Below, in pieces: positions 40,856 through 59,485 of a DNA stretch of 64,000 nucleotides (position 1 is the stretch's first letter; every line of letters begins with the position of its first letter). The DNA lies in NCBI GenBank assembly GCA_015062585.1, contig SUUJ01000001.1, forward strand, positions 72,736-136,735, read 5' to 3'. The position numbers and the translations under genes are program-made. The notes beneath the pieces are model-generated. The model had not been told where the DNA came from and did not search any database. It was given only the letters and a program-made list of their open reading frames with translations. The stretch is from Alphaproteobacteria bacterium (GTDB taxonomy: Bacteria; Pseudomonadota; Alphaproteobacteria; RF32; CAG-239).

Positions 40856-41690
40856 TGCTTCTTTCCTTAAGCATGTTTTTGATACCATCGTGATAGGGAG
40901 TAAAGTTAAATTCATTAATAATACTTTTTAGTAGAGTATTATCCGCCGTATATTCATTGTTCATACCATCTTGCTTAAATAATATAGAAAAATTACTATT
41001 GTTAACCTCATTAGCTATTTCAGCTAATCTTTTAATCGTTATGTCGTCGGTTTGTGTAACATTAATAAATTTATATTTAGGAAAATTTTTAATAAAATAT
41101 TCAACAATTTTACAAAGATCATCAATATAAATAAAACTAAATTTTACATTTTGATTAAGTTCTATATTCTTTTTGTTTATAATACTATTGATAATACAGC
41201 TTGTTACTCTGGTTGGATTTTCTCCTATTCCATAAACTCCAAACAGGCGAAGATTTAATATATTTTTGCTATTAGTAATCATTTTAGATATAACATATTT
41301 AGAATAGCCATATGGATCTTTAGGAACAGATTTGCCAAAATCTTCTTCTTTGACATTTGTTATATTTGTGCTTTTATCATACTCCGCTCCGGAACCAAGA
41401 ATAATCATTTTGCAGCTATCAGAAGTGTGTTCTGCCAAATTGTTAAACATTTCAATATTTGGTCTGGCTACATCATCATTTGTTGCACCAGGAGTTATTC
41501 TAACGCCCATAGCAGCGCAATGAATAATAAAATCTATTTTGTTTTTATCAAAATAATTAGCGACTTCTTGTTTATTCAATAGGTCCAATTCTGTTATCGA
41601 AGGAGTAAACAAGGTATAATTATCAAGTAAATAACTCTTTATGTGAGAGCCAATAAAACCATCAGCACCTGAAATGAAAATGTTGGTCAT
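40836..41690 (-). CDS. NAD-dependent sugar epimerase/reductase (YerF-like candidate)
   Basis: 'IFISGADGFIGSHIKSYL' Rossmann motif. 284 aa. Adjacent to the TPP enzyme and ddh genes. Confidence 0.6.
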   Translation of the reverse strand: MTNIFISGADGFIGSHIKSYLLDNYTLFTPSITELDLLNKQEVANYFDKNKIDFIIHCAAMGVRITPGATNDDVARPNIEMFNNLAEHTSDSCKMIILGSGAEYDKSTNITNVKEEDFGKSVPKDPYGYSKYVISKMITNSKNILNLRLFGVYGIGENPTRVTSCIINSIINKKNIELNQNVKFSFIYIDDLCKIVEYFIKNFPKYKFINVTQTDDITIKRLAEIANEVNNSNFSILFKQDGMNNEYTADNTLLKSIINEFNFTPYHDGIKNMLKERSNDFSKK

Positions 41691-43399
41691 TATAGTTCTT
41701 CCTTTTTTATTTGCTCTAATTCTTCATCAGAAATTAAAGGATGCATTTTATCTATAGTATTTCCAAACAGAACCTTAGGGGTAATTTGTGTACTCTGTTC
41801 AAATATAATATTTATCAATACATGATCGTTTGATTCTAGAAAATCATTTATCATATCATCTGTGAGGTCTTCAGCCCTGACTGTTATTCCATTAATTTTA
41901 TATGCATTGGCAACTAAAGAAAAATCAGGAGCTGAATAATCATGTACAGTCGATGCGTTTCTACCTTCAAAATATAAATCTTGAAATTGTCTAACCATAC
42001 CTAGACTAAAGTTATTCATAATCACTATTTTGATAGGTAAGTTTCTTCTTTTAATTATTTCTAACTCTTGAATATTCATTTGGAAACCGCCGTCTCCTGA
42101 TATTACAATACTTCGAGCTCCTGATATACTTGCGCCAATGGCTGCCGGTAGGGCAAATCCCATGCATCCCAGTCCACCAGATGATAAGTGCCGTGAATGT
42201 TCTTTTACAACTAAAGATTGTCCGACCCACATCTGATGTTGTCCGACATCTGAGCAAACAACATCATCATTATTCAACTTTTCGCTGATCTTCTTAATAA
42301 TTATGTTGGGTAAATTCTTGTTTCCATCCAAATCCTCTGTTGATGGATATTTTTTCTTTAACTGAAGAACTTTACTTTGCCAATTTGTAATATTTATATT
42401 CAATTCTTTTTGACATAATTGCTGGAAAAAACTATCTATGGATAAGTTAACGGTTATTTTATTCAGATTACTACACTTCAGTTGACCTTCATCTATATCA
42501 ACATGTATAATTTTTTTATTGTTAAAAATAGATGTATTAGCTCCTATTTGCCTGATATCCAACCTTGATCCTAAAACTAATATTGTATCAGCTATAGATA
42601 ACGCAATGTTAGCATATCTGTTTCCATAAGTGCCAATCATTCCCAAATTGTATATATACTCAGAAGGTACACAATCCAGACCTAATAAAGACTCTACAAC
42701 AGGAATTTGTGTTTTGTCCAAAAAATCTCTTAAATATTGTTGAGCCGAAGATAAACGCACGCCATTGCCAACAAGAATAATAGGAGATTTTGAAGAATTT
42801 ATAATATCAATAATGTTTTTTAGATCTATTTCATTTTGGGGAACGCAAGGAGCATAAAAAGACCTTGCTTTAGAAAAATCAAAATCAATTCGCTGAATAT
42901 CCATAGGAATATCAATTAAAACAGGACCTTTTCTACCATCCTGAGCAATAAAAAACGCTTTTTCAAGTTCATATCGTAAATTTTTAATATCATCAATAAG
43001 GACGGCATATTTTGTTATTGGTTTTGCCATAGAAACAATATCTGTTTCTTGGAATCCTGTTTGTCGTATTTCAGGAAACTTTTTATATTCAAAAGTATTA
43101 ACTTGCCCTGTTATAAATACTACAGGAGTAGAATCAAAATAGCAACTTGCCATAGGGGTTAATAAATTTGTTGCTCCAGGTCCTGATGTTGCTATTGCAA
43201 CAGATACTTTTCCTGTTACTCGGGAATATCCTTCTGCTGCAAAACCAGCCCCTTGTTCTGTGATGGTATTAACCATTTCAATATAATCTGATTGATAGAT
43301 GCTATCTGTGAGATGAGCAACCATTCCTCCAATATATCCAAAAATTTTAGAAATATTTTTCTGTATAAAAAAATCTACTATAAAGTCAGAAGCTTTCAT
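41690..43399 (-). CDS. thiamine-pyrophosphate enzyme of the acetolactate-synthase family (YerE-like branched-sugar synthase candidate)
   Basis: ALS-like N-terminal 'GYIGGMVAHL..EQGAGFAAEGYSRVTGKVSVAIATSGPGATNL'. 569 aa. Placed between ddhC and a reductase. Confidence 0.6.
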   Translation of the reverse strand: MKASDFIVDFFIQKNISKIFGYIGGMVAHLTDSIYQSDYIEMVNTITEQGAGFAAEGYSRVTGKVSVAIATSGPGATNLLTPMASCYFDSTPVVFITGQVNTFEYKKFPEIRQTGFQETDIVSMAKPITKYAVLIDDIKNLRYELEKAFFIAQDGRKGPVLIDIPMDIQRIDFDFSKARSFYAPCVPQNEIDLKNIIDIINSSKSPIILVGNGVRLSSAQQYLRDFLDKTQIPVVESLLGLDCVPSEYIYNLGMIGTYGNRYANIALSIADTILVLGSRLDIRQIGANTSIFNNKKIIHVDIDEGQLKCSNLNKITVNLSIDSFFQQLCQKELNINITNWQSKVLQLKKKYPSTEDLDGNKNLPNIIIKKISEKLNNDDVVCSDVGQHQMWVGQSLVVKEHSRHLSSGGLGCMGFALPAAIGASISGARSIVISGDGGFQMNIQELEIIKRRNLPIKIVIMNNFSLGMVRQFQDLYFEGRNASTVHDYSAPDFSLVANAYKINGITVRAEDLTDDMINDFLESNDHVLINIIFEQSTQITPKVLFGNTIDKMHPLISDEELEQIKKEEL

Positions 43400-44760
43400 T
43401 ATACAATACTCCGGATGAAGTCGTGAATAACCTTAGATGTCTTTTTCATATCTTCCGGAGTATTGTTCTGAGCAACACCTACCCAAAATGTGTGATTCAT
43501 TATAAATTCTGTTCCGGGTAAACTAGCATAATGTATTTCATGTAATTCTTTTGCATTCAATAACTCTGAACTACCAATCCGTAAATTGATATCATTTTCC
43601 ACAATCATTGGTTGACGCAAAATGTTACCCGCAAACAATTGACGTGTTCCAATGCCATTAGCTTCTAGATACTTTACCAAGTCTTGCTTAGTAAATGGAG
43701 CATTCTCCTTTACTGAAATTAAAAAACCAAACCATGATGGAGTACAATTTTCTGTAATTTTTGGTAAAATTAAATAATCTTCTAAATCAGATAGTTCTCG
43801 CAACAGTGTTTCTGCATTTTCTTTACGCATAGCTAAAAATTTATCTAATTTTTTAAGTTGGGCTAAAGCAATGGCTGCTTGCCAATCAGTAATCTTTAAG
43901 TTATAACCGATGTGTGAATATGTATATTTATGATCATAACCTTTCGGTAAATTGCCTAACTTTAAGTTAAATCGATTATGACAAGTATCATCACAACCAG
44001 GTTTACACCAGCAATCACGTCCCCAATCTCTAAAAGACATAATGATGCGGTGTAATATAGGATCATTAGTTACGACAGCGCCACCTTCACCCATTGTAAT
44101 ATGATGCGCAGGATAAAAACTATATGTTCCTATATGACCAATTGTTCCGGCATATTTACCATTCCATTTTGCACCCAATGCATCACAACTATCTTCAATT
44201 ACCCAAAGATTATATTTTTGAGCTAAATCCATAATTTTATCCATATCATACATATTACCCAATGTATGAGCTAAGAAAATTGCTCTGGTTTTAGGTGAAA
44301 TAGCTTCTTCAATTTTGTTTACATCAATATTATATGTTCCAACCTCACAATCAACAAATACGGGAATCATACCATTTTGAATAATAGGATTCACTGTCGT
44401 TGGAAATCCTGCAGCCACGGCAATAACTTCATCACCTTTCTTTAATGCTCTGTCTTGTAGCTTGTGAGATGTCAAAGCTGAAAATGCTAACAAGTTGGCT
44501 GACGATCCAGAGTTTGTTGTAAGTGCATATTTTACACCTAATTTTTGTGCAAAGTCTTTTTCAAATTCATCATTAAAACGACCGGAGGTCAACCACATAT
44601 CCATAGAAGCCTCAAACATATTTATAAGTTCTTCGCATCCAATATTTTTACCCGATGCTGGAATATATTTTTTTTCTCTTTTTGCTTTCTCTTCTTCTAA
44701 ACAATTAGCGTAATCTTTAGCTAAATCCAAAATTTGTTGTTTGATGCTTTCTTTATTCAT
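43399..44760 (-). CDS. ddhC: CDP-6-deoxy-D-xylo-4-hexulose-3-dehydrase (E1)
   Basis: DegT-family fold with 'SFYPAHHITMGEGG', i.e. His in place of the PLP-binding Lys, the hallmark of the E1 dehydrase. 453 aa. Confidence 0.75.
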   Translation of the reverse strand: MNKESIKQQILDLAKDYANCLEEEKAKREKKYIPASGKNIGCEELINMFEASMDMWLTSGRFNDEFEKDFAQKLGVKYALTTNSGSSANLLAFSALTSHKLQDRALKKGDEVIAVAAGFPTTVNPIIQNGMIPVFVDCEVGTYNIDVNKIEEAISPKTRAIFLAHTLGNMYDMDKIMDLAQKYNLWVIEDSCDALGAKWNGKYAGTIGHIGTYSFYPAHHITMGEGGAVVTNDPILHRIIMSFRDWGRDCWCKPGCDDTCHNRFNLKLGNLPKGYDHKYTYSHIGYNLKITDWQAAIALAQLKKLDKFLAMRKENAETLLRELSDLEDYLILPKITENCTPSWFGFLISVKENAPFTKQDLVKYLEANGIGTRQLFAGNILRQPMIVENDINLRIGSSELLNAKELHEIHYASLPGTEFIMNHTFWVGVAQNNTPEDMKKTSKVIHDFIRSIV

Positions 44761-44761
44761 A

Positions 44762-45853
44762 TTATAAACTCCAATCTATATTTTTTGCTTGTGCGTTTGC
44801 TACAAATTCATTGATTTGTTTTTTTGTAAAATCAACCATATCTGTATCGTTTTTATAAAAAGCTTTGTACCATTCTGTTGTTTTAATAATTGCTTCTTCT
44901 GCACTATAAACAGGTTTCACACCCAGTTCTTTTTCTGCTTTTTCAATGTTAAGTTGAAGTAGGTTAGCCTCATGCAATCCATCAGCTTTGCCGACTTCAA
45001 CTTTCCCATTTCCCCAAACCTCAGAAACTTTTTGTGCGACCTCACAAACTTTTACATCTTTATTCATTTCCGGTCCAAAATTATACCCCTGAGCATATTT
45101 AGAGCCTTCTTCTAATAATTTTTGTCCTAAACGCAGATATCCGGCTAATGGCTCTAATACATGTTGCCAAGGACGAGTTGCTAAAGGATTTCTTATAAAG
45201 ACAGTTTCATTTTGTTGAAATGCTTTAATACAATCTGGTATAAGCCTGTCTTTTGCCCAATCACCACCACCAATAACATTACCCGCACGACCGGATGCCA
45301 AAGCATAAGGTTTACCATCAGTCAAGAATGAACGACGATATGAAGATGTTAGAATTTCAGAACATCCCTTGGATGAGGAATAAATATCATATCCGCCCAT
45401 TGGCTCGTCTTCTTTATATCCTTCTTTTTTCTCTTTGTTTTCATAGCATTTATCTGTGGTTACATTCACAAAGGCCTTAACAGATGGTGTTTTACGTGCG
45501 GCTTCTAAAACTTTTAGTGTGCCAATAATATTAGTTTCATATGTTTCCACAGGTTCAGAATATGAAAGACGAACAATCGGCTGCGCGGCTAAATGGAAAA
45601 CGATGTCAGGATTATGCTTGGCAAAATATGTTTCTAACTTTTGGTTTTCTCGAATATCCGCAATTAAACTATCATCTAAAGTATTTTCTAAATTTAACAC
45701 TTTAAACAAATGTTTTTCAGTATCAGGCAAAAGAGAATATCCGACAACTTTAGCACCCATCTGCTTCAACCAAAATGCAAGCCAACTTCCTTTAAAACCC
45801 GCATGACCGGTAATTAATACGGTTTTATTTGAATAAATATTATTAAATAGCAT
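44762..45853 (-). CDS. ddhB: CDP-glucose 4,6-dehydratase
   Basis: 'VLITGHAGFKGSWLAFWL' N-terminus. 363 aa. Between ddhA and ddhC. Confidence 0.75.
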   Translation of the reverse strand: MLFNNIYSNKTVLITGHAGFKGSWLAFWLKQMGAKVVGYSLLPDTEKHLFKVLNLENTLDDSLIADIRENQKLETYFAKHNPDIVFHLAAQPIVRLSYSEPVETYETNIIGTLKVLEAARKTPSVKAFVNVTTDKCYENKEKKEGYKEDEPMGGYDIYSSSKGCSEILTSSYRRSFLTDGKPYALASGRAGNVIGGGDWAKDRLIPDCIKAFQQNETVFIRNPLATRPWQHVLEPLAGYLRLGQKLLEEGSKYAQGYNFGPEMNKDVKVCEVAQKVSEVWGNGKVEVGKADGLHEANLLQLNIEKAEKELGVKPVYSAEEAIIKTTEWYKAFYKNDTDMVDFTKKQINEFVANAQAKNIDWSL

Positions 45854-45854
45854 G

Positions 45855-46637
45855 TTAATTATTCCAAATCTTCCAAGGGGCTCTATTTTCAGCCCATAAT
45901 TGATTTAAATCTTGCTTATCTTTCAACATGTCCATCGGATGCCAAAAGCCTACATGTTTATATGCATTCAATTGTTTATCCCTAGATAAAGATAATAAGG
46001 CACTTTTTTCAAACATTAACTCATCTGAATTTTCTGGAAGATAATTAAATATCGCAGGTTCACAAATCATAAATCCGGCATTGATCCAAGATCCGCTTTC
46101 CTTAGGTTTTTCCGCAAAATTTGATATTGTTCCATCACCTTCAATTCCTAATGACCCATATTTACCTTCAGGTTGATATGCTGTTAATGTGCATATTTTT
46201 CCGGATTTCTTATGAGCTTCTAATAAGTCGGGGATAGATATATCTGCTACACCATCACCATATGTCAACATAAAAGGTTCATTACCAATATATTTTTGAG
46301 CCTTTTTAATTCGTCCTGCAGTTAGAGTGTTTCTTCCGGTATATAGCAAAGTAACTTTAAATGGTTCACAATGATTTTGGTGCACTGTTATATCATTTGT
46401 TGATAAATCAACAGTTACATCGGAGTTATTCATATAGTAATTAACAAAGTAATCTTTTATTACCTCTTGCTTATAGCCGGTTAAAATAACAAAATCATTA
46501 TAACCATAGTGAGAATATATTTTCATTATATGCCATAAAATAGGATATCCTCCAATTCCGACCATAGGTTTAGGTTTAATTGAAGTTTCTTCTCCTAATC
46601 TTGTTCCTAGGCCACCGGCCAATATTACTACTTTCAT
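45855..46637 (-). CDS. ddhA: glucose-1-phosphate cytidylyltransferase
   Basis: 'MKVVILAGGLGTRL..SIKPKPMV.IGG.PILWHIM' motif. 260 aa. Confidence 0.8.
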   Translation of the reverse strand: MKVVILAGGLGTRLGEETSIKPKPMVGIGGYPILWHIMKIYSHYGYNDFVILTGYKQEVIKDYFVNYYMNNSDVTVDLSTNDITVHQNHCEPFKVTLLYTGRNTLTAGRIKKAQKYIGNEPFMLTYGDGVADISIPDLLEAHKKSGKICTLTAYQPEGKYGSLGIEGDGTISNFAEKPKESGSWINAGFMICEPAIFNYLPENSDELMFEKSALLSLSRDKQLNAYKHVGFWHPMDMLKDKQDLNQLWAENRAPWKIWNN

Positions 46638-47473
46638 TTTTTATTTCTCCTCAATTTAATTTGCAATTTTCCGATATGATAAATCTTATGAGACGATGTT
46701 TTTTCCTTATATAAAAACGGCGGTTTCTTTCCACAAAATGCGTCAAACCTACGACGCATACTTTTTGCCAAAAAGTTATAATTTTGCTTGTACATATCCG
46801 TGTGAAATGAAAAAATTTTATTGAACGAAAAGGTATACTTTTCAAGACTATCACTCAGCTTGGTAATCATCGATACTTCATGTTGCCGGTAATAAAACAA
46901 AACCTCCGGAATTCTATACACTCCAACGCCGTTTTCAATCAGAGAAAGCCAAAATTCATAATCTTCTAAGCCATAAATCATTTCTTTCTTGTAACCACCG
47001 ACTTTTTCCCAATCTGATTTTCTAAACAATGCCGTACAAAAGATACGATTACTATTTAAGATATCAGGAAACTTATATTCTTTTAGGGGCCACAGTCCTT
47101 GTTTGGCTCCAAAAAACTCTGCCAAACAGTAAACTATTCCTATTTTATCATTATTCTCAATAACATTAACGGCCTTTTCAATATAGGTAGGCCCAATTTT
47201 ATCATCAGCATCAAGAGGCAAGATATACTTACCAGTTGCTGCTGCGATACCGGTATTGCGAGCTTCGGCCAATCCCTCATTTTGTTTGTTGATTACTTTT
47301 GTCTTAGGTTTGGAATAATTATTTAGTAAAGTATTAGTTGCTTCATCCGTTGAACCGTCATTAACAATAATTATTTCAATATCATCATAACTCTGTGCCA
47401 AGCATGAATTAACAGCCTCATCAACATATTGTCCGTGATTGTAACAAGGAATTACTATACTAACTCTAGGCAT
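46634..47473 (-). CDS. family-2 glycosyltransferase
   Basis: 'VSIVIPCYNHGQYV..DIEIIIVNDGSTD' GT2 signature. Confidence 0.7.
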   Translation of the reverse strand: MPRVSIVIPCYNHGQYVDEAVNSCLAQSYDDIEIIIVNDGSTDEATNTLLNNYSKPKTKVINKQNEGLAEARNTGIAAATGKYILPLDADDKIGPTYIEKAVNVIENNDKIGIVYCLAEFFGAKQGLWPLKEYKFPDILNSNRIFCTALFRKSDWEKVGGYKKEMIYGLEDYEFWLSLIENGVGVYRIPEVLFYYRQHEVSMITKLSDSLEKYTFSFNKIFSFHTDMYKQNYNFLAKSMRRRFDAFCGKKPPFLYKEKTSSHKIYHIGKLQIKLRRNKK

Positions 47474-47476
47474 ATA

Positions 47477-48334
47477 TTACTTCTCCTGCAATTTAATTAC
47501 AGATTTGCTTGCAAACAGCGGCAATTTCTTAAAAAGGTATACTTTTGTGAGATTTGCTTGTTTTTTGATTGTTATAAAAGGAATAAAACCAAACAGTCTT
47601 ATTCTTGTGGTATGCTTGGCTTTGAATAAAAATTCTTCATACAATTGCGGGTTGTCATTTTTTACAAAAGACCAAATACTCAAAGTTGCCTGACGCATTT
47701 TATCACTTTGTCGGTGTGAGGTATTTTGTCCGTGATCTCTGTAATGAAATAAAATCTCGTTCAAATTGTGAAAATTGGTAAAAGGTATCAGTCTGCACCA
47801 CAAAGCGTAGTCTTCAGAGGGTGAAAATTCTTCTTCATAACGGATGTTATTTTCAGTCAAAACTGATTTTCTAATCATGGCGGCCGAGTGGTTTATACTG
47901 CAAACCCTCATTAAAGCCAGTTTTATATCGTGGTTATTGCTCGGATTTCTGGATGTTTTGCCTCTTATCATGGTTTTGACCTTGCAAGAAACAACCCCGA
48001 CATCCGAATGTTCGTCTAAATAAGCTACTTGCTTTTCCAGTCTGTCGGGTAAAGATATGTCATCATGGTCAAAAACTGCCAGATATTCGCCACTTGCCAT
48101 ATCTATAAGCTTATTTCTACTTGGCGTAATTCCTAGATTTTGCTCATTTTTAGAATATTTTATGCGTTTGTCTTTGTATGATTTTACAATTTCTTCTCGG
48201 TCATCATCAGGACAATCGTCAAGAATCAAAAATTCAAAGTCCGAAAAGGTCTGATCGAGGATAGATTCTATAGCCTCTCTTAAATACTTTTCATTAGTTT
48301 TATATACAGGCATTAACACCGATACTTTGGGCAT
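47477..48334 (-). CDS. family-2 glycosyltransferase, copy 1 of an inverted duplicate pair
   Basis: 'VSVLMPVYKTNEKYL..FEFLILDDCPDDD'. ~95 % aa identity to 48560-49417. Confidence 0.75.
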   Translation of the reverse strand: MPKVSVLMPVYKTNEKYLREAIESILDQTFSDFEFLILDDCPDDDREEIVKSYKDKRIKYSKNEQNLGITPSRNKLIDMASGEYLAVFDHDDISLPDRLEKQVAYLDEHSDVGVVSCKVKTMIRGKTSRNPSNNHDIKLALMRVCSINHSAAMIRKSVLTENNIRYEEEFSPSEDYALWCRLIPFTNFHNLNEILFHYRDHGQNTSHRQSDKMRQATLSIWSFVKNDNPQLYEEFLFKAKHTTRIRLFGFIPFITIKKQANLTKVYLFKKLPLFASKSVIKLQEK

Positions 48335-48385
48335 TGCTAATCCTTTTCACTTTGAATTGTCCTAATTTTATGGAACACGACAGCT

Positions 48386-48544
48386 TATCCATAAACCACC
48401 GTTTACGGATAGTTATTCAAGAGGCTTTTGGTAAAGTTAAAAAAAATAAGGAAAAAGCTTGTATTTTCTATTTTTTTCCTTGCATTATTGTTTTTATTGG
48501 AGTAAGACTTTCACTATGTAATTTAAACGGTGGTTTATGGATAA
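48386..48544. promoter_or_regulatory. candidate invertible promoter segment: 117 bp bounded by perfect 21-bp inverted repeats
   Basis: ttatccataaaccaccgttta at 48386-48406 and its exact reverse complement at 48524-48544. Enclosed AT-rich segment contains TTGCAT/TTGTAT -35-like hexamers. Sits between two divergent operons. Confidence 0.5.
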
Positions 48545-48559
48545 ATAGAAGGAGTCAAA

Positions 48560-49417
48560 ATGCCTAGGGTCTCGGTATTGATGCCTGTTTACAAGACAAA
48601 AGAGAAATATTTGCGTGAAGCAATTGAAAGTATCTTAAACCAAACTTTTACAGATTTTGAGTTTCTTATTTTAGATGATTGTCCTGATGATGACCGAGAA
48701 AAAATTGTAAAATCATACAAAGACAAACGCATAAAATATTCTAAAAATGAACAAAATCTAGGAATTGCGCCAAGTAGAAATAAGCTTATAGATATGGCGA
48801 GTGGCGAATATCTTGCTGTTTTTGACCATGATGACATATCTTTACCCGACAGACTGGAAAAGCAAGTAGCTTATTTAGATGAACATCAGGATGTCGGTGT
48901 AGTTAGTTGTAAAATAAAAAATATGATTAGAGGTACAACCTCTAGAAATCCGAGCAATAACCACGATATAAAGCTGGCTTTAATGAGGGTTTGCAGTATA
49001 AACCACTCTTCCGCCATGATTAGAAAATCAGTTTTGACTGAAAATAACATCCGTTATGAAGAAGAATTTTCGCCTTCTGAAGACTATGCTTTGTGGTGCA
49101 GACTGATACCTTTTACCAATTTTCACAATTTGAACGAGATTTTGTTTCATTACAGAGATCACGGACAAAATACTTCACACCGACAAAGTGATAAAATGCA
49201 TCAGGCCACTTTGAGTATTTGGTCTTTTGTAAAAAATGATAATCCGCAATTGTATGAAGAATTTTTGCTCAAAGCCAAGCATACCACAAGAATAAGACTG
49301 TTTGGTTTTATTCCTTTTATAACAATCAAAAAACAAGCAAATCTCACAAAAGTATACCTTTTTGAGAAATTGCCGCTGTTTGCAAGCAAATCTGTAATTA
49401 AATTGCAGGAGAAATAA
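48560..49417 (+). CDS. family-2 glycosyltransferase, copy 2 of the inverted duplicate pair
   Basis: Near-identical to copy 1. Strong RBS aaggagtcaaaATG. Confidence 0.75.
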   Translation: MPRVSVLMPVYKTKEKYLREAIESILNQTFTDFEFLILDDCPDDDREKIVKSYKDKRIKYSKNEQNLGIAPSRNKLIDMASGEYLAVFDHDDISLPDRLEKQVAYLDEHQDVGVVSCKIKNMIRGTTSRNPSNNHDIKLALMRVCSINHSSAMIRKSVLTENNIRYEEEFSPSEDYALWCRLIPFTNFHNLNEILFHYRDHGQNTSHRQSDKMHQATLSIWSFVKNDNPQLYEEFLLKAKHTTRIRLFGFIPFITIKKQANLTKVYLFEKLPLFASKSVIKLQEK

Positions 49418-49420
49418 TAT

Positions 49421-50470
49421 ATGCCTAGAGTTTCGGTATTGATGCCTGTTCACAAGACAAAAGAGAAATATTTGCCCTTTATATCTTGTAAATTTAAACG
49501 AAAAATTACTACACTATTAGATTTAAAAAAACTCAGTGTAATTATAACTGTATATAATGAAAAACCCGAATATATCGAACGAGCAATAACATCTCTAAAT
49601 AATCAAAATTTTCAAAATCTTGAAATAATAGTTGTTAATGATGGTTCTAAAAATGAAGATACCATAAGGTTTTTAAATAATCTTAAACAAGATAACCTAA
49701 AAATAATTAACAAAGAAAACGGAGGACCGGGAAGTGCCAGAAATTTAGGATTACAACACACTTCTGGCGATGTCGTTGGATTTCTTGATGCTGATGATTG
49801 GGTAGAAAAAGATTTTTATTCCGAACTAATGTACAATTTAATAAGGTATAACGCAGATGTTGCATGTGGCGTTTTGATATGTAATGGCAAAAGTTATGAT
49901 AAATTTCCGCGATATATTGCCTCTACTGTTCAAGAAAAATTAAAATATATAAATAATGGTTCGGTTTGCTCAAAAATATTCAAAAAAGAATTGTTCAATG
50001 ACATAAAATTTTCCGAAGCCAAAATTTATTACGAAGATAATCCGGTTTTATTAAAGCTTTTGTTGCAAGCTGATAAAGTGTCTTTTAATCCAAAGGCTGA
50101 ATATATTTACTTTACCAATGATACATCCATAACCAGAAACAAAGATGAAAGTAAAGAACAAAAAAGAATAGATGATAGTGTGCTTATTTTAGAACAAATT
50201 AAAAAATGGGCTGATTCATATGATAAAAAAACATCTGATTTGATAATGCTGACGGTAGGTCAGATACTATTTCGTGCTTGGCAATATACTAAAAACGAGA
50301 ATTATCGCAAAAAAATAGATAAAATTTTTACAAAAGAACAAATGGCAATTCTTATAAAACCGCAATTAACATTTGCCCAAAAAATTTTCTCACTAAAAAA
50401 ATCAAAAGATAAATCTTATAAAATCATCACCTTTCTCGGATTTCAAATCAAATGGAGGCTCAAAAAATGA
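49421..50470 (+). CDS. family-2 glycosyltransferase with chimeric N-terminus
   Basis: First 18 aa (MPRVSVLMPVHKTKEKYL) and 55 nt are a third copy of the duplicated gene's 5' end. Then a distinct GT2 domain 'LSVIITVYNEKPEYI..IIVVNDGS'. Confidence 0.65.
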   Translation: MPRVSVLMPVHKTKEKYLPFISCKFKRKITTLLDLKKLSVIITVYNEKPEYIERAITSLNNQNFQNLEIIVVNDGSKNEDTIRFLNNLKQDNLKIINKENGGPGSARNLGLQHTSGDVVGFLDADDWVEKDFYSELMYNLIRYNADVACGVLICNGKSYDKFPRYIASTVQEKLKYINNGSVCSKIFKKELFNDIKFSEAKIYYEDNPVLLKLLLQADKVSFNPKAEYIYFTNDTSITRNKDESKEQKRIDDSVLILEQIKKWADSYDKKTSDLIMLTVGQILFRAWQYTKNENYRKKIDKIFTKEQMAILIKPQLTFAQKIFSLKKSKDKSYKIITFLGFQIKWRLKK

Positions 50471-51756
50471 GCCAGAAGAAAATATTTATAGTATCCCTAT
50501 CCGAGATTACACATGTTGTTGGTGGCGCAATTACCATAACAATAAATATGTGCAATTTTTTAGTAAAAGCCGGATATGAAGTATATTGTATTTGTTCTGA
50601 TAATATTGACGGCAGACCGCAGCAAATTGATGAAAAAGTAAATTTTATCAATTTGGCATACAGATATAATGGGCAACCGTTTTCTAAAGCGATAAATCAG
50701 TTGGCTGAAGAAGTTAAACCGGATTTGTTTATATTTTTCTTTTCCTTTTTATACGAGAATGCACAATTATCAGCTGGTTATATCAACACTCCTAAAGTGA
50801 TAATGTTTCACTCAAGACCTGATTTTTATTTTCAGAATAATTGCGACAAACTGAAAAAGCTATATTCTTGTGATAAAAATATTATATCGCAAATCTTGTT
50901 TGACAGTTATAAATCATTATTGCCTGATTTTATAAGGAATAGAAATGTTATAACCATTCCAAACGGTGTAAAAACAATTGATAAAACAATAAATACAGAC
51001 ATTGAACATAAAAAAATCATATATTTATCACGCATTAATTGTTGGAAAGGCTTAGAATTTTTAATCAACTCTTTTAAGTTGATTGCACAAAAATATCCTG
51101 ATTGGTCAATTGATATTTATGGTCAATCACAACCGGAAGAATATGTAAACGAACTAAAATGTTTAGTAAAAAAATTAAAGCTTGAAAAACAAATAAATTT
51201 TCAAGGAATAACAAGAAATCCTATAGAAACAATGATGAACTATGATTTTTGTGTATTTCCCTCATATTTTGAAGGATTTCCTATGGGGTTAATTGAATCA
51301 TTAAGTGTCGGATTACCTTGTATCGGTTTAGAAGAATGTTCCGGAGTTAATGAAATAATATCAGACGGTGAAAACGGATTTTTAGCACAAGAAGATTACG
51401 CAGACTTTTCTCAAAAAATAGAAGCCTTAATAAAAGACAAAGAGCTTAGAGAAAAAATGAGCCAAAAAGCTAAGCAAACAGCCGATAAATATGATAAGAA
51501 ACAGATTGATGAAAAATGGCTCTCTGTAATCAAAAATCTATTAAACAATGAGGCAATAAGTATAGAACAAACCCCGGATGTTAAAGGTAAGAAGTTATTT
51601 CCATTGGCTAAAATACAACAAATGTATAAACAGCAACACAAAAAATACATAAAGCCTTGGGATTATATCTTTTCTATCAAAAATTCTCAAAATAAAAAAC
51701 GCAAAATTATAACTGTTCTCGGTCTTCAAATTAAATTTAAAAGGAAGAGAAAATGA
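50452..51756 (+). CDS. family-4 (GT-B) glycosyltransferase
   Basis: 'EGFPMGLIESLSVGLPCIG' GT4 C-terminal motif. Confidence 0.7.
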   Translation: MEAQKMSQKKIFIVSLSEITHVVGGAITITINMCNFLVKAGYEVYCICSDNIDGRPQQIDEKVNFINLAYRYNGQPFSKAINQLAEEVKPDLFIFFFSFLYENAQLSAGYINTPKVIMFHSRPDFYFQNNCDKLKKLYSCDKNIISQILFDSYKSLLPDFIRNRNVITIPNGVKTIDKTINTDIEHKKIIYLSRINCWKGLEFLINSFKLIAQKYPDWSIDIYGQSQPEEYVNELKCLVKKLKLEKQINFQGITRNPIETMMNYDFCVFPSYFEGFPMGLIESLSVGLPCIGLEECSGVNEIISDGENGFLAQEDYADFSQKIEALIKDKELREKMSQKAKQTADKYDKKQIDEKWLSVIKNLLNNEAISIEQTPDVKGKKLFPLAKIQQMYKQQHKKYIKPWDYIFSIKNSQNKKRKIITVLGLQIKFKRKRK

Positions 51757-52979
51757 AAATCGTTTATGTTACAATGGAATATATCAATCCGGATAATCTA
51801 AATGTAATAGATGGTGGCTTAGCAAATTATTTGCATAAGATAACAACCTGTTTATATAAAATGGGACACGATATAACGGTTATTGTCGCGGATTCTTATC
51901 CTAATAAGCATATAGACTATAATGGAATAGATGTAATATATATAAATAATAAATTTCAAAAAAAACTAATTCAAAAAATATTATGGCCATTTATTACCAA
52001 AAAGAAGCGAAAGTTGTTAAAAAGAAACTTTTTGCATTACGCAATAAGTAACGCCATAAATAAAATTAATAAAAAAAATAAAATAGATGTTATACAGTAT
52101 GCCAGTTGCCGAGGGCTTGGAAGATATCCTCAAAAAGATATTCCGTCTTGTGTGAGAATATCCTCTTATGCAAAATTAATGCAAAAATTTTATAGTTATC
52201 ATGATGATTGTGAAATTGAAGCGGAAACTTTACAAATTAAAAATAATAAATTTATTTTTGGACCTTCTTCGCATATAGCCAATTATATTAAAGATGATTT
52301 GGGTGTAAATAAAGATATTAAAATAATCGAGTCACCTTATTCTGAATGCAAAATATCAGCAGATAACACTATATTAAATGAATTGCAAAGCAAAATTAAA
52401 AGTGCTCCATTTTTGTTATTTTTCGGTACTATAGGAGAATTAAAAGGGTGTAAGGTTATTGCAGATTGCATTTATGATATTTTAAACCAATATCCGAATT
52501 TACATATGGTGTTGGTTGGTAAAAATGCAACTTTTATCAATGATATTGATTACGCTCAAATAATTAATAAAAAGGCTAAAGAACATGCAAACAGAGTTAT
52601 TCGTTTTCCTAGCCTTCCTCATTCACAATTATATCCCCTTATAAGTAATTGTTTAGCTGTTGTAATGCCGTCTTTAACGGAAAATTTTTCCAATGCTTGT
52701 GTTGAAGCCATGCGCTTGAAAAAAATAGTTATCGGAACCGAAGGAAATTTTTCTCAGCTCATAACTGACGGGCAGAACGGATTCTTAGCAAAAGTGGGAG
52801 ATTCCGAAAGTCTCAAAGCTAAAATTGTCGAGGTTATGTCATTAAACGCAGATAAAAGACAAGAAATTGAAGAAAAATCATTTCAAAGGACAGAAAGCTT
52901 GTCGCCTGAAAATATATGCAATCAGCTTTTGGATTATTACAAATTTATCATTAAAAATTGGGAGAATAAAAATGAATAA
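51753..52979 (+). CDS. family-4 (GT-B) glycosyltransferase
   Basis: 'SLTENFSNACVEAMRLKKIVIGTEG' E-x7-E-like GT4 region. Confidence 0.65.
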   Translation: MKIVYVTMEYINPDNLNVIDGGLANYLHKITTCLYKMGHDITVIVADSYPNKHIDYNGIDVIYINNKFQKKLIQKILWPFITKKKRKLLKRNFLHYAISNAINKINKKNKIDVIQYASCRGLGRYPQKDIPSCVRISSYAKLMQKFYSYHDDCEIEAETLQIKNNKFIFGPSSHIANYIKDDLGVNKDIKIIESPYSECKISADNTILNELQSKIKSAPFLLFFGTIGELKGCKVIADCIYDILNQYPNLHMVLVGKNATFINDIDYAQIINKKAKEHANRVIRFPSLPHSQLYPLISNCLAVVMPSLTENFSNACVEAMRLKKIVIGTEGNFSQLITDGQNGFLAKVGDSESLKAKIVEVMSLNADKRQEIEEKSFQRTESLSPENICNQLLDYYKFIIKNWENKNE

Positions 52980-53730
52980 TACATCTGTCGGAATAATAGG
53001 ATGCGGTTTTGTCGGTGGCGCATTAAAGAGATGGCTAGAAGAACACAACCAATCAGTTAACATTCTTGTTTCTGACCCGCCAAAGGGAATGAATGATGAT
53101 GTATCAAAGTCTGATGTTATATTTATCAGTATTCATATACCGACAGAGGCTGACGGCACACAGGATTTGACATTGTTAACCGAGATAATCAATGGCTTGC
53201 CAATTGATAAACCGATATTTATCAGGACAACCATTGTTCCTGGTACTGCTGATAAGTTATCAATAAAAACAGGTCGAAATGTATATTTTATGCCGGAATT
53301 TTTAACTGAACGCACAGCTTATGAAGATTTTTGCTCGCAACCGATGATTTTTACAGCCGAAGAAGAGTTACTTAAAAATATCTTTATCGGAAAAAAATAT
53401 ATTACAATGACTTCTTTAGAGGCTGAAATAACAAAATATGCACACAATGTTTTTGGCGCACTGAAAGTTACTTATTTTAACGGTATTTATGACTTATGCA
53501 AAAAGATGGAAGCTAATTATCGTAAAATTCAACAAGGTATTTTGTTGAGCGGTTATATAAACGCTCCTCATACTATGGTACCGGGTCCTGACGGCAAATT
53601 CGGATATGGCGGAAAATGTTTTCCAAAAGATGTTAATGCATTAACCAAAATGACTGAAGGATTGCCAATATACAATTTGTTAAAAGAATTAAAACCATTG
53701 AATATTGAATTTAGAGGGGAAGATAAATAA
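52972..53730 (+). CDS. UDP-glucose 6-dehydrogenase-like protein, C-terminally short (~252 aa)
   Basis: 'VGIIGCGFVGGAL', 'FMPEFLTERTAYEDF', 'KYAHNVFGALKVTYFN', catalytic-Cys region 'GYGGKCFPKDVNAL'. ORF stops ~30 aa later, lacking the UDP-binding C-terminal domain. Confidence 0.55.
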   Translation: MNNTSVGIIGCGFVGGALKRWLEEHNQSVNILVSDPPKGMNDDVSKSDVIFISIHIPTEADGTQDLTLLTEIINGLPIDKPIFIRTTIVPGTADKLSIKTGRNVYFMPEFLTERTAYEDFCSQPMIFTAEEELLKNIFIGKKYITMTSLEAEITKYAHNVFGALKVTYFNGIYDLCKKMEANYRKIQQGILLSGYINAPHTMVPGPDGKFGYGGKCFPKDVNALTKMTEGLPIYNLLKELKPLNIEFRGEDK

Positions 53731-54749
53731 TGAAACTGCTTGTAACAGGAACAGCCGGTTTTATAGGGCATTTTGTAGCATTGCAACTGTTAAAAGACGG
53801 ACATGAAGTTGTTGGCGTTGATAATGTAAACGATTACTATGATGTAAATATAAAAGAGGCAAGATTAAAAAATTTGCACAAATTTGAAAATTTTATCGAG
53901 GCCAGAGTAGATTTGATTGATAGAAATGCTTTGGAAAAAATATTCAATGAACACAAGCCACAGCGTGTTCTAAATCTTGCAGCACAGGCCGGCGTCAGAT
54001 ATTCATTTGAAAATCCGTATGCCTATGTGGATTCAAATTTGATTGGCTTTGTAAATTTGGAAGAACAATGCAGACATCATAATGTAGAACATTTTGTGTT
54101 TGCCTCTTCGGCGTCCGTATATGGAGCCAATAACAAATTGCCTTGGGATGAAGCTGATGGTTGTAATCATCAATTGAGTCTTTATGCGGCTACTAAAAAA
54201 GCAAACGAGGTAATCGGACATTCTTATGCGCATTTGTTTAATCTTCCGACAACCGGATTAAGATTTTTTAACGCCTATGGACCTTGGGGACGCCCTGATA
54301 TGGCTTTGTTTATATTTGTTAAAAACATTATTGAAGGCAAACCCATAAATGTGTTTAACAACGGAAAAATGGTACGAGATTTCACCTATGTAGAAGATAT
54401 TGCAAGAGGTGTTTGCAAGGTATTACTCGGTCCGGTCCCGACAATTGATAAAAATTGGGATAGAGGCGCAACTGTTCCGGATCCTTCACGCAGCGGTGTG
54501 GCACCTTTCAGAATTTATAACATCGGTAATTCTAATCCTGTTGAACTAATGCGTTATATTGAGCTTATGGAAAAAGAAATCGGTAAAAAAGCTATTATCA
54601 ATTTTATGCCTATCCAACCCGGAGAAATCGTCAAATCAGAAGCAGACAATTCAGATTTGTACGAAACATTTGACTTCAAACCTCAAGTAAAGGTGGAGGA
54701 AGGTGTTCATAATTTTGTCAAATGGTATAGAGAATTTTACGGAGTATAA
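53730..54749 (+). CDS. UDP-glucuronate 4-epimerase (GalE/SDR family)
   Basis: 'LLVTGTAGFIGHFVA', 'YAATKKANE' YxxxK catalytic motif. 339 aa. Downstream of the Ugd-like gene. Confidence 0.7.
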   Translation: MKLLVTGTAGFIGHFVALQLLKDGHEVVGVDNVNDYYDVNIKEARLKNLHKFENFIEARVDLIDRNALEKIFNEHKPQRVLNLAAQAGVRYSFENPYAYVDSNLIGFVNLEEQCRHHNVEHFVFASSASVYGANNKLPWDEADGCNHQLSLYAATKKANEVIGHSYAHLFNLPTTGLRFFNAYGPWGRPDMALFIFVKNIIEGKPINVFNNGKMVRDFTYVEDIARGVCKVLLGPVPTIDKNWDRGATVPDPSRSGVAPFRIYNIGNSNPVELMRYIELMEKEIGKKAIINFMPIQPGEIVKSEADNSDLYETFDFKPQVKVEEGVHNFVKWYREFYGV

Positions 54750-54751
54750 AT

Positions 54752-55339
54752 ATGAGAATATTTAACAAAAAGAAAGGTTATGACGGATTACGAGAATTTT
54801 TTCTGTTTGGAATAAAAGTATACTCGTATAAGAGAAAAAACAAAAACTCTGAGCACAATAACCCTAACAAAGCTGAGTTATTAAAAAGTATGGGCGTTAT
54901 TATAGGTGATAATGTTAAAATATGGGGCATGCCTAATCTTCCTACCGAATACTTTTTTATAGAGATTGGTGATAATTCGACAATTTCTTCAAATGTTACA
55001 TTTTTAACTCATGATGGTTCTATGAATGCTTGTCGGGAATATTATAAAGGTTGGTATGAAACAATTCCCTCTCCTTTGGGTAAAATAAAAGTCGGAAAAA
55101 ATTGTTTTGTCGGAATAAACAGTATCATTTTACCAAATGTAATCATTGGAAATAATTGTGTAATCGGAGCCGGTAGTGTTGTAACCAAAAATGTTCCTGA
55201 CGGTGAAGTATGGGCCGGAAATCCTGCTCGTTTCATCAAAACGACCAAAGAGTTATCAGACAAATTTGAAATAATTATGAATAGCAAACAACAAGCAGAA
55301 CTTGACGAATTTGCTAGAAAACAAGGAGTTTATAAATAA
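54752..55339 (+). CDS. hexapeptide-repeat O-acetyltransferase (WbbJ/MAT-like) with basic N-terminal extension
   Basis: 'VGINSIILPNVIIGNNCVIGAGSVV' left-handed beta-helix repeats. Confidence 0.65.
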   Translation: MRIFNKKKGYDGLREFFLFGIKVYSYKRKNKNSEHNNPNKAELLKSMGVIIGDNVKIWGMPNLPTEYFFIEIGDNSTISSNVTFLTHDGSMNACREYYKGWYETIPSPLGKIKVGKNCFVGINSIILPNVIIGNNCVIGAGSVVTKNVPDGEVWAGNPARFIKTTKELSDKFEIIMNSKQQAELDEFARKQGVYK

Positions 55340-55341
55340 AA

Positions 55342-57642
55342 ATGTTCAGAGTTGAAAAAAACAATCATAAGATAAAAGTTAACGTACTAGGCTTAAAACT
55401 TTCCTTTAAGGAACGGAAATTTTTAAACCCTTTTAGGCATCCAGTATTTCGTAATGACGATGTATCCGTAGACTCTCATATGGAGCATTTTAAGGAATTT
55501 TGTGAGATTTTTCATAAATACGGCTATACACAGCTTCATGCAATTAACTTATACGGATATACAAACTGTAACTTTTTGACTAGTGGTTTACCGACTCCTT
55601 ATGAGGGCTATAAGAATTTAAGTGCAATTCCAAATGACAAAATAAGAGAACTTTCACAAGGCAAGTTTATTGGAGATAATAAAGAACTTGTAGATTATAT
55701 AAATTCTATTCCTGATGAGATCGCTCTGCATGGCCTTTATCATACAAATTATTCTACAATGTCTTATGATGAACAATACAAGGATATCGAGGAAGGATTA
55801 AGACTATTAAAAGAGTTATTTCCAAACAAGAAAGTAAAAGTTTTTGTAGCTCCGTTTAATAAAACAAATAAAGACACATATAAAGTGTGTAAAGTGTTTG
55901 GATTGCGTTTAAGCGCTCTTGAGGGACAACACCTTGAAGATATGATTGAATATCATAATTATGGAATAAAAAATGGTGAAATATATCGTTATCATCATCA
56001 CAGATTTTATCCGGAATCTACATTTAATAGCTATGATTTAAGTTTAGAAAAATTAGATAGATTTTTGGGCTATAAGAAGCATTCAAAACGTAAATTGCCT
56101 AATATAAATGTTTTTGCTGATATCGTACATAAGTATAATGCGCAGGAATGGTTTATATATTCATTTAATGATTTTAAAAACATACAACATGCCTATCTTC
56201 CATATAAATGGATTTTAAAAAACATAAAAAAGAAAAGAAGTATTCTTGCAACGGGCTGTGGTGTAGGCGATATGCTTTATCATTTATATAAAAACGGCTA
56301 TAAACATTTATCCGGTTATGACTATGACGAAAAAGCGATAAATGCAGCAAAAGAAATTACAGAAACAGTTTATGCTTCTATTGATTTTGCAGTGCAAGAT
56401 GGGCGGGACCCAAAGCTAAACAAGAAATACGATGTAATTGTTGGTGTAAATTGGATATATCATGTTCCTAACTATGGTTTAGAGGATTTTATTAAAGTAC
56501 ATGTCCCATATATTAATAGTGACGGATATTTTATTTTTGATACGGTTGATATTAAATACAACGAAGTGCCAAACAATCAATATGGGGTTCAAGATTGGGA
56601 CAAACCAGTAGAACAAAGACGACCAAGTGAATATTTATACAGATATTCAAAAGATGATGTTGAAAAACTTGCAAAAAAATATAATTGCGATGTTGTATAT
56701 TCAAAATTTATTGAAAATATAGTGCCTCATGCATTTTATGTTTTAAAAAGGAAAAAACTTCCCAAAATATGCCTGTTGTGTGACCGTCCGAATTGGGCAC
56801 ATGATCATAGTGCACAAGAAATAAAAAAGCAACTTTCTAATGATTTTGATATTGATATTAAATATGTAATCAAAAAACCAAAATTAAAACCTAGAAAATA
56901 TGACCTAATTCATGTATTTTTCTGGGGAGAAGATTATTATAAAAAATTTAAATTTCCTAAAAGTAAAATAATAAAACAAGTTTCATCACACAGATGGCAG
57001 GACAACCCTATGTATGGCCCTTTAACACCTGTTGAATTCCAAAAGAAATATTTGGATGATGCAAAATTTGTAAGCTGCCCTTCTAAGATTCTTTATGATT
57101 TATTAAAAGATGTATGTCCTAATTTGTTTTTGATTGGGAAAGGCTATTCTCCTAAGAAGTTCTATTACAAGAATGGTAGAGCAGGCGAGATGTCAATTTG
57201 TTGGGCAGGAAATATTAAAGATCCGGTAAAAGGGGTTGAAGAAATATTAATTCCTGCAACAAAAGATAAATATAACTTGAATTTGGCTTCAGATTTAAAA
57301 CATGAGGAATTGTTTGATTTTTACAATTCAAATGACATTTATGTCGTTACTTCACGCAATGAAGCCGATCCGTTGCCTTTGATAGAATCAATGGCTTGTG
57401 GTTGTTTCCCTGTAGCGAACTATGTGGGTATCGCTCCGGAATTAATTCGTCATAAAGAAAACGGATATTTGGTTAAAGAAAGGACTGTTGAAGCTTATCA
57501 AAAAGCTTTTGAATGGTGTAAGAATAATATTGAATATATTAGAAGCCAACAGGAAAAAATATCAAAAGAAATTTATGAAACTCGCCGTTGGGAAATCAAG
57601 GCACAAGAATATAAAAAGATGTATGATGAATGTTTGAAATAA
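55342..57642 (+). CDS. multidomain protein: deacetylase-like region + SAM-methyltransferase + GT4-like C-terminal domain
   Basis: 'ILATGCGVGDMLYHLYKNGYKHLSGYDYDEKAI' class-I MTase motif I. C-terminal 'ADPLPLIESMACGCFPVANYVGIAPELIRHKENGYLV' GT-B motif. Confidence 0.55.
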   Translation: MFRVEKNNHKIKVNVLGLKLSFKERKFLNPFRHPVFRNDDVSVDSHMEHFKEFCEIFHKYGYTQLHAINLYGYTNCNFLTSGLPTPYEGYKNLSAIPNDKIRELSQGKFIGDNKELVDYINSIPDEIALHGLYHTNYSTMSYDEQYKDIEEGLRLLKELFPNKKVKVFVAPFNKTNKDTYKVCKVFGLRLSALEGQHLEDMIEYHNYGIKNGEIYRYHHHRFYPESTFNSYDLSLEKLDRFLGYKKHSKRKLPNINVFADIVHKYNAQEWFIYSFNDFKNIQHAYLPYKWILKNIKKKRSILATGCGVGDMLYHLYKNGYKHLSGYDYDEKAINAAKEITETVYASIDFAVQDGRDPKLNKKYDVIVGVNWIYHVPNYGLEDFIKVHVPYINSDGYFIFDTVDIKYNEVPNNQYGVQDWDKPVEQRRPSEYLYRYSKDDVEKLAKKYNCDVVYSKFIENIVPHAFYVLKRKKLPKICLLCDRPNWAHDHSAQEIKKQLSNDFDIDIKYVIKKPKLKPRKYDLIHVFFWGEDYYKKFKFPKSKIIKQVSSHRWQDNPMYGPLTPVEFQKKYLDDAKFVSCPSKILYDLLKDVCPNLFLIGKGYSPKKFYYKNGRAGEMSICWAGNIKDPVKGVEEILIPATKDKYNLNLASDLKHEELFDFYNSNDIYVVTSRNEADPLPLIESMACGCFPVANYVGIAPELIRHKENGYLVKERTVEAYQKAFEWCKNNIEYIRSQQEKISKEIYETRRWEIKAQEYKKMYDECLK

Positions 57643-59480: not shown

Positions 59481-59485
59481 TAAAA

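Follow-up and report, generated by a model that had tools for sequence, protein, structure and literature searches.

The phase-variable surface glycans that are placed under a master DNA invertase are a hallmark of the biology of gut Bacteroides, where they bear on immune modulation, phage evasion and persistence. In the Hin system of Salmonella, too, the promoter rides on the invertible segment; the segments inverted by Hin, Gin, Cin and Pin are 1-4 kb in length, carry or adjoin the invertase gene, and need an enhancer bound by Fis. A further arrangement is that of sapA in Campylobacter fetus, in which, as Dworkin and Blaser reportedly described, a single promoter between opposed homologous genes drives one or the other of them; this inversion is said to depend on RecA, to use long conserved 5' coding regions, and to move a segment of ~6 kb among genes for S-layer proteins. 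For the Bacteroides fragilis invertase Mpi, a passage of PMC4747536 that cites Coyne 2003 gives 13 inverted regions, 7 of which are capsular polysaccharide promoters. The present work concerns a 64-kb stretch of DNA from a gut alphaproteobacterium (“the window”, 64,000 nucleotides (nt) long), in which a 225-bp spacer (“the hinge”, 48335-48559) separates two divergent glycan operons. This hinge carries what is very probably an Mpi-type invertible promoter, here outside Bacteroidota, and the promoter is probably wired as an either/or selector between the two operons.

The hinge lies between two closely similar, divergently oriented genes for family 2 glycosyltransferases (GT2), the “twins”, and it is organized around a perfect inverted repeat (IR). 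The two arms of this repeat, IR-L (TTATCCATAAACCACCGTTTA) and its complement IR-R, are each 21 nt long and 100% complementary, and they bound an AT-rich interior of 118 bp (positions of all features are collected in Table 1). The initial annotation of this DNA had correctly recognized the perfect 21-bp repeat and the AT-rich segment that it bounds, but it placed the left arm at 48386-48406 instead of 48385-48405 and made the segment 117 bp long; of the two leaders that it gave for the flanking genes, the 15 nt on the right stand, but the 52 nt on the left become 50. By chance, a 225-bp spacer of the same composition would be expected to hold ~4e-8 perfect pairs of 21-nt IRs, and the 21-mer has no third copy in the window even when 3 mismatches are allowed (shuffle expectation 0.00). 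The window thus holds one cassette only. When read from the sequence, the left arm falls within a 26-bp near-palindrome that has the form of two 12-bp half-sites around a 2-bp core, the centre of which lies within CACCGTTT; at the right site the inner half-site is degenerate, with 5/12 dyad positions. A second inverted pair of CACCGTTT cores at 11842-12048 proved to be a 10-nt IR within an intact flavin-reductase gene with no cassette features, and it was judged to be a chance match. An Rfam search of the hinge returned no family match (best 18 bits, compared with a gathering score of 100), and a known RNA element in the hinge was dropped as a candidate.

Homologous cassettes invert in three sister species. 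In the species P0024, the invertase of which is 83% identical to that of the window, a 119-bp interior bounded by (G/A)TATATCACCGTTTA is flanked by the invertase gene on the plus strand and, on the minus strand, by a glycan operon whose first gene lies 28 nt from the IR. This interior has one orientation in eight full assemblies, with which the partial contig L027 agrees; the interior of L020 is the exact reverse complement of that of L018, in flanks that are 99.97% identical over 9,781 nt and 99.7% identical over 2,473 nt. The species P0118 (invertase 73% identical) has a 107-bp interior that occurs in one orientation in seven assemblies and is reversed in L033 and L034 (99.1% match) and also in L029, where the reversed copy has a 32-nt deletion. 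In this species the two arms diverge immediately beyond CACCGTTT, and each remains with its own flank; the crossover therefore lies inside this shared octamer. The species P0149, which was found through a twin-like GT2 of 75% identity, has the IR TAACGAACGATTGTTTT around a 100-bp interior; L057 and L058 have this interior reversed as compared with L051-L055, and the flanks show 1 mismatch in 6,544 nt. Because the backgrounds are near-isogenic, these flips are recent events and not old differences between strains. The IRs of the flipping relatives are 12-17 bp long, compared with 21 bp in the window, and the window interior aligns with the cassettes of its relatives, including that of the metagenome-assembled genome (MAG) L008 described below, in one orientation only (score 88 vs 44).

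The window also encodes the enzyme that would act on the cassette, a gene that was absent from the initial annotation. It is a serine DNA invertase of the Mpi family, which the NCBIfam model NF009949 (“master DNA invertase Mpi family”) matches with E=3.2e-78 over positions 1-194 of 203; the score of 262.1 bits misses the curated equivalog cutoff (272) by 10 bits, so that by the cutoff taken by itself the protein is a candidate member. It belongs to a large and well-conserved family, of which the best 120 matches are 73-100% identical and come from MAGs labelled Alphaproteobacteria or Rhodospirillales, and several homologues with 82-85% identity carry the NCBI name Mpi family, while the best match in the PDB is the Gin invertase at E=1e-11 only. 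The open reading frame (ORF), which most likely starts at the ATG at 37307 and reads MIYGYCRISTTHQ..., is intact and retains Arg7, Ser9, RLGR and ERQLISERT. It adjoins the left operon at its distal end and is 10.5 kb away from the cassette. No other recombinase was present among the window ORFs that were scanned, and none of these matched the Phage_integrase family of tyrosine recombinases. In three relatives (L018, ~9965-9995; L028; L044) a palindrome, CTTATAAATAGTT-N4-AACTATTTATAAG, is conserved ~10 nt before the invertase ATG; at the corresponding place in the window (37284-37300) only its right half is recognisable, and a lone TTATCCAAAA, like an IR half-site, lies 130 nt 5' of the gene (37165-37174).

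The position of the promoter is suggested by an alignment of five sequence-related cassettes, the window's included, in a common orientation. The invariant columns comprise both recombination sites, TTGC (48480-48483), TA (48503-48504), and a TAT.TA beside the right site, and the invariant TA begins 17 nt after the TTGCAT hexamer. The putative -10 element is TAAGAC in the window and TATAAG, TATGAA, TAAGAA and TAGAAG in the other four. An A-rich AAGGAAAA block is conserved in part across the alignment (its form in the window, AATAAGGAAAAAG, is possibly an UP-like or bending element), and the conserved TATGTAAT block that adjoins IR-R may serve as an alternative -10 element or else belong to the right recombination site as its inner half. 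The promoter call, TTGCAT-N17-TAAGAC directed at the right operon, rests on this cross-species conservation because a consensus scan of the hinge for promoters and terminators found nothing inside the segment; the same scan found a promoter-like site in neither leader. Two further cassettes support this direction, as does the spacing in the window. That of P0149, which is unrelated in sequence, carries a close match to the consensus, TTGAAA-17-TATAGT, at the same end and directed outward across the IR. In the species P0130 the ATG of the first operon gene falls inside IR-R, and its promoter must therefore be within the cassette. The genes that flank the window's cassette start only 15 and 50 nt past the IRs, which leaves no room for other promoters.

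On balance it is probable that Mpi-type inversion of this promoter feeds the two operons alternately. The invertase would bind the two 26-bp dyad sites that hold the 21-bp IRs, cut at the central dinucleotide inside the shared CACCGTTT, and flip the 118-bp interior, at the right end of which the single outward-firing promoter of the sigma-70 type is predicted. In the present orientation transcription would exit through IR-R into the right operon, while in the flipped orientation it would exit through IR-L into the left operon. Because the first genes start 15 or 50 nt past the IRs, both operons would depend on the cassette, and each cell would express only one of the two glycan gene sets. Either/or control of this kind is suggested by the geometry of the locus, in which the leaders are short and the scan finds no outside promoter, and the operon that the promoter faces away from would be silent.

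The 21-bp IR was also sought outside the window. Its sole match in the genome collection is L008, an “uncultured Alphaproteobacteria” MAG from a Hadza gut; the metagenome collection yielded one locus, L007, and the viral collection no match. In L008 an IR that matches at 20/21 nt bounds a 107-bp interior homologous to that of the window, again at a hinge with divergent sugar operons on either side: a GDP-sugar arm, with cytidylyltransferase-like and PMM-like genes, a GT2, GDP-mannose 4,6-dehydratase, a cupin and a reductase, is set against a dTDP-rhamnose arm with RmlA and RmlC. L007 represents this locus in another sample and does not differ in orientation, but its cassette (2272-2373) has a 23-nt internal deletion in the non-promoter half. 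The initial annotation had entertained the idea that the IR might be a common dispersed repeat; it does recur at L008, but it there bounds another cassette of the same kind. Reuse of an IR at separate loci fits what a master-invertase regulon predicts (the second locus is known from another MAG than the window's), and the second two-operon hinge shows that the wiring is not a one-off. Of the closest homologues of the twins, P0122 (L061) stops 18 nt before the ATG and is uninformative, and P0126 (L062) has a co-directional layout and a different IR.

The orientation of the window's own cassette was followed in public assemblies. The organism is present in the JGI samples 3300018494, 3300018495, 3300018475, 3300022661 and 3300023715, in ENA ERZ27248306 and in SRA SRR24653858, and public contigs with the identical protein number 21 for the right twin, 22 for the left twin and 23 for the invertase. 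The hinges that were read come from the window, L001/L009/L013/L015 (one contig), L002/L010, L011/L016, L012 and L017. Small-flank look-ups and counts of a 65-aa hinge ORF, which exists only in the native orientation, gave no inverted copy of the window's hinge. An inverted hinge would yield an ORF of only 21-33 amino acids, which is below the reach of gene callers, and because it gives no callable ORF inverted assemblies are not retrievable by protein look-up; the 16 contigs that carry the 65-aa ORF, compared with the 21-22 that carry the twins, are a suggestive deficit. The locus falls on two contigs in JGI 3300018494: Ga0187911_10000638 stops precisely at the inner edge of IR-R (48524), and its partner runs through the native interior to 48507, 17 nt short. 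A contig that stops where an IR meets the interior is the outcome expected of a de Bruijn assembler when the reads hold both orientations, and breaks of the same type occur in P0149, for which flipping is proven, where both L059 and L060 start right at the inner edge of the IR.

A number of points weigh against the proposed mechanism. Every hinge read, in 9 assemblies, shows the window orientation at 100% identity, and the 16 contigs counted by ORF are native as well. The broader idea of the initial annotation, an invertible promoter in the style of the Bacteroides polysaccharide loci, is well supported by an Mpi-family invertase, homologous cassettes that are flipped in three sister species and a conserved promoter-like block, but the window's own copy is seen in one orientation only. 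Something else, for example the 907-nt repeat formed by the twins, could have produced the lone contig break. The TAAGAC of the window is the weakest putative -10 element of its family, and TTGCAT-17-TAAGAC stayed under the threshold of the consensus scan. Internal promoters elsewhere in the operons are conceivable, and the silence of the arm that the cassette faces away from is a prediction. The invertase score falls short of its cutoff, as noted above, and the invertase gene is not beside the cassette, unlike in four relatives. Finally, the B. fragilis Mpi motif, ARACGTWCGT (a string not found in the literature searched), is absent from the window IR, where the position reads AAACCACCGT; the sites of two distant relatives, TAACGAACGATTG (L051) and CAAACGTTCGTTTT (L038), come closer to it.

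These points bear differently on the other explanations that can be offered for the hinge. The single orientation found in all assemblies of the species is what would be seen if the cassette were locked or a relic, now fixed facing the right operon, with the left operon silent or otherwise expressed; the relocation of the invertase gene away from any cassette in this species and the deletion variants of the cassette in relatives (L007, L029) fit this as well. A relic is nevertheless improbable, given IRs that are perfect over 21 bp and longer than those of the relatives that flip, an invertase ORF that keeps its Arg7, Ser9, RLGR and ERQLISERT and is identical on 23 contigs, and one sample in which a contig ends exactly at the IR inner edge; consensus assemblies, moreover, give the majority orientation only. 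It is less improbable, if still unlikely, that the cassette inverts but is an ON/OFF switch for one operon, the other arm having its own promoter or being read from elsewhere, in which case the two glycans would not be mutually exclusive. The first genes at 15 and 50 nt from the IRs and the two-operon layout with the same IR at the L008 hinge both speak for dependence of the two arms on the cassette, but divergent wiring is not necessary for a cassette as such, since in two relatives (L051, L062) it lies between co-directional genes. A source for independent expression of the left arm might be sought in a minus-strand promoter-like site at 48294-48265 within the left twin, or in the TAAAAT of the 50-nt left leader; the former is within shuffle range (1 found, 1.9 expected) and lies downstream of the ATG of the left twin.

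Two explanations dispense with the invertase. The twins form an inverted repeat of 907 nt with 90-91% identity and identical runs of up to 95 nt, and one promoter region between opposed homologous genes resembles the sapA arrangement, so that RecA-dependent homologous inversion between the twins might occur, with the 21-bp IR being incidental. As the main route this is very unlikely. Long homology is not needed, because the inversion endpoints in the relatives coincide exactly with short IRs whose flanks are unrelated, a glycan operon adjoining one IR and the invertase gene the other; similarity between the twins is at its lowest (76%) over the 156 nt by the hinge; and a perfect 21-bp IR in an otherwise non-repeated spacer would be left unexplained. 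Hardest of all to credit is a static element in which nothing inverts and the IRs act as paired operators or fold into a hairpin of RNA or DNA. IR-L does lie within a near-palindrome of the sort typical of dimeric DNA-binding proteins, but homologous cassettes flip, the associated protein is a recombinase and not a repressor, and the hinge has no Rfam family match.

The cassettes of the relatives show a second kind of wiring. In three sister species (L018-L027, L028-L037 and L044-L050) the cassette has a glycan operon on one side and the invertase gene on the other. In two of them most assemblies (9/10 and 7/10) have it facing the invertase, and in the third every assembly has it facing the operon. 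Provided that the promoter call is correct, the glycan operon would be driven in one orientation and the invertase in the other, so that the switching rate would be state-dependent. The first cassette-controlled operon gene in relatives encodes a resolvase-fold paralogue of the invertase (~200 amino acids, 21-29% identity) that has lost the catalytic Arg and the RLGR arginines in 4/4 cases and the Ser in 2/4, and has kept the C-terminal helix-turn-helix. The paralogue is probably an inactive DNA-binding derivative, and it could lock or cross-regulate cassettes. The more general proposition is held tentatively, as one that may well be true but stops somewhat short of probable: that gut Alphaproteobacteria use an Mpi-family invertase in a hinge wiring, not known from Bacteroides, in which both orientations are productive and two glycan programmes are made mutually exclusive by geometry alone, and that in sister species the invertase gene itself serves as the second arm and a dead resolvase paralogue heads the switched operon.

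Other variation was also observed in these relatives. A 77-nt segment beside the main cassette, bounded by GTTCGTTA and TAACGAAC, is also flipped between L053 (3650-3735) and L051 (4140-4225), which would make for a three-site, shufflon-like arrangement. The 32-nt loss in L029 (9155-9245) covers the putative -10 element and the spacer. Assemblies of the same species also differ in the genes by the invertase or cassette (L028 10640-11113 compared with L029 10084-11292; upstream in L051-L056), and these differences could be strain indels, larger rearrangements, or assembly joins at the repeated cassette sites.

The strand polarity and gene content that the initial annotation had given for the two arms agree with the ORFs and Pfam matches. 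The left operon encodes, in order of Pfam content, the twin GT2, a GT2, an NDP-sugar transferase (nucleotidyltransferase), a 4,6-dehydratase, a DegT-type protein, a thiamine pyrophosphate (TPP) enzyme, a reductase, a GT2 and a double GT2; by comparison with the CDP-yersiniose pathway, which comprises DdhA/B/C, the TPP enzyme YerE and the reductase YerF, the arm looks like a branched or dideoxy-hexose pathway. The right operon begins with the twin GT2, a GT2, two GT4, a short Ugd-like gene, an epimerase and a hexapeptide acyltransferase, and continues with a deacetylase-methyltransferase-glycosyltransferase fusion, a methyltransferase fragment, a 388-nt gap, a TupA-like ATP-grasp gene and a GT1-like gene. 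The Ugd-like ORF (52867-53730) is short (252-287 amino acids, no C-terminal domain match), the methyltransferase fragment (57653-58009) has 118 amino acids, and the gap follows at 58010-58397; the right arm may accordingly contain decayed genes and an internal promoter. The near-identity of the twins noted initially is real: they form a 907-nt inverted repeat of 90% identity, and as a gene pair they are 91% identical in nucleotides and share 272/286 amino acids (95%). Their description as “initiating” transferases does not hold, since GT2 enzymes are not initiating transferases, and among the ORFs searched with Pfam neither arm has a polyprenyl-phosphate glycosylphosphotransferase (initiating phosphoglycosyltransferase), a flippase, a polymerase or an ABC exporter. 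Divergence between the twins is concentrated in the 156 nt nearest the hinge (the first 156 nt, 76% identity), the remainder being mostly ~97% identical, a pattern that suggests either that gene conversion has acted on the 3' parts or that selection has driven divergence by the hinge. Homologues of the twin GT2 that are 72% identical (P0177, P0180) are annotated in Campylobacter lanienae, which suggests that glycan genes have been exchanged by different phyla in the guts of animals.

The glycan locus sits between an flgE-like gene (34109-35320) and flaF (61117-61482), and because of this position flagellin is a possible target; the locus could be an island for the glycosylation of flagellin or another protein and not a capsule or O-antigen locus. 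The flank on the flgE-like side (33657-37087) also has GtrA-like, bactofilin and M23 peptidase genes. Further away, the region ~12400-30300 is prophage-like, with S24 repressor-like, large terminase and Cpn10-like genes, a weak portal match, two tail-collar proteins and a lysozyme, as well as many ORFs with no Pfam match. In L051 and L062 an Mpi-like gene lies directly 3' of phage tail genes.

Table 1. Features of the hinge, the operons and the invertase gene in the window, with the resolvase-fold paralogues of relatives
Feature	Position	Strand	Remarks
Serine DNA invertase gene, Mpi family	37307..37894	+	195 aa; Pfam Resolvase and HTH_7
Left glycan operon	37920..48334	-	9 tightly packed genes, gaps or overlaps <=11 nt; Pfam
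Left twin GT2	47477..48334	-	First gene of left operon
Left-operon leader	48335..48384	-	50 nt; sigma-70-like promoter not detected by scan
IR-L	48385..48405		Perfect 21-bp repeat
Full left site	48386-48411		TATCCATAAACC-AC-CGTTTACGGATA; 26-bp near-palindrome, 10/12 half-site dyad positions, as read from sequence
Putatively invertible interior	48406..48523		118 bp; homologous to cassettes found in both orientations in relatives
A-rich block AATAAGGAAAAAG	48445..48457	+	Conserved in part
Putative outward-firing promoter	48480..48508	+	TTGCAT (48480-48485), 17-nt spacer, TAAGAC (48503-48508); toward IR-R and right operon
Conserved TATGTAAT block adjoining IR-R	48515..48522	+	From cassette alignment
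IR-R	48524..48544		Perfect 21-bp repeat; full site 48518-48543
Right-operon leader	48545..48559	+	15 nt; Shine-Dalgarno AAGGAG at 48549-48554; no space for promoter
Right twin GT2	48560..49417	+	First gene of right operon
Right glycan operon	48560..60901	+	ORF layout and Pfam
Junctions, native orientation			Left CCACCGTTTACGGATAGTTATTC, right CACTATGTAATTTAAACGGTGG
Junctions expected if inverted (in silico)			Left CCACCGTTTAAATTACATAGTGA, right GAATAACTATCCGTAAACGGTGG
IR motif TATCCATAAACCACCGTTTA			Paired copies would mark further regulon members
Resolvase-fold paralogues in relatives	L018 9130-9732; L028 9171-9761; L051 4406-5008; L062 5406-6008		

If the proposed mechanism is true, the same enzyme family and promoter cassettes of ~110-130 bp operate in uncultured gut alphaproteobacteria, which would imply either transfer between phyla or repeated origin, and the hinge wiring would be a simpler route to “one glycan per cell” than the UpxY/UpxZ cross-inhibition network of Bacteroides. 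Because the cassettes are compact and clearly delimited, and flipped variants from nature are already public, the prediction is directly testable. The literature searched, outside which Coyne 2003 and Jiang 2019 fell, contained no paper on alphaproteobacterial Mpi invertons or on hinge-type either/or invertons.

Of the described systems that invert a promoter, E. coli fimS resembles the window's cassette in being a short IR-bounded element that controls a surface structure, but it is served by the tyrosine recombinases FimB and FimE, which are encoded alongside it, and it turns one operon ON or OFF; the window ORFs scanned include no tyrosine recombinase. Like Hin (Salmonella fljBA), Gin (phage Mu), Cin and Pin, the proposed enzyme is a small serine invertase, with Gin as its best solved-structure match, and its sites have the look of 26-bp dyads centred on a 2-bp core; their TTATCC..AAACC half-sites seem reminiscent of gix/hix, which we take as a lead and not a test. 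The likeness to these systems goes little further, since similarity to Gin reaches only E=1e-11, the segment is 118 bp long and so too small to contain an invertase gene with a cis enhancer, and the gene lies 10.5 kb off. Hin, moreover, achieves its either/or outcome by means of a co-transcribed repressor, while the window's cassette would achieve it by divergent wiring. For that wiring the nearest precedent, by analogy, is sapA, from which the locus differs in the dedicated invertase proposed to act at 21-bp IRs and in the switching of whole glycan operons.

The closest likeness overall is to the Mpi system and the PSA-PSH loci of B. fragilis, with which the locus shares a strong score against the Mpi model and short IRs flanking a promoter segment of ~100-200 bp just upstream of glycan operons (here IRs of 21 bp and a segment of 118 bp, directly 5' of the operons at 15 and 50 nt). 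As in B. fragilis, the enzyme gene lies outside the segment and would act in trans, and the same IR is found at more than one locus, the second being in another MAG. The differences are that the host is a flagellated, low-GC gut alphaproteobacterium and not a member of Bacteroidota; that the IR sequence is another one; that the promoter looks sigma-70-like and not of the Bacteroides -7 TAnnTTTG type; that neither arm is headed by genes of the UpxY/UpxZ type; that the cassette sits between two divergent operons, so that both orientations would be productive; and that the invertase gene takes the place of the second “target” in three sister species. In its predicted function and in its enzyme family, the locus would thus be a counterpart of the Bacteroides Mpi system of polysaccharide promoters, set apart by its host phylum, its type of IR and promoter, the missing UpxY/UpxZ-like genes and the hinge wiring.

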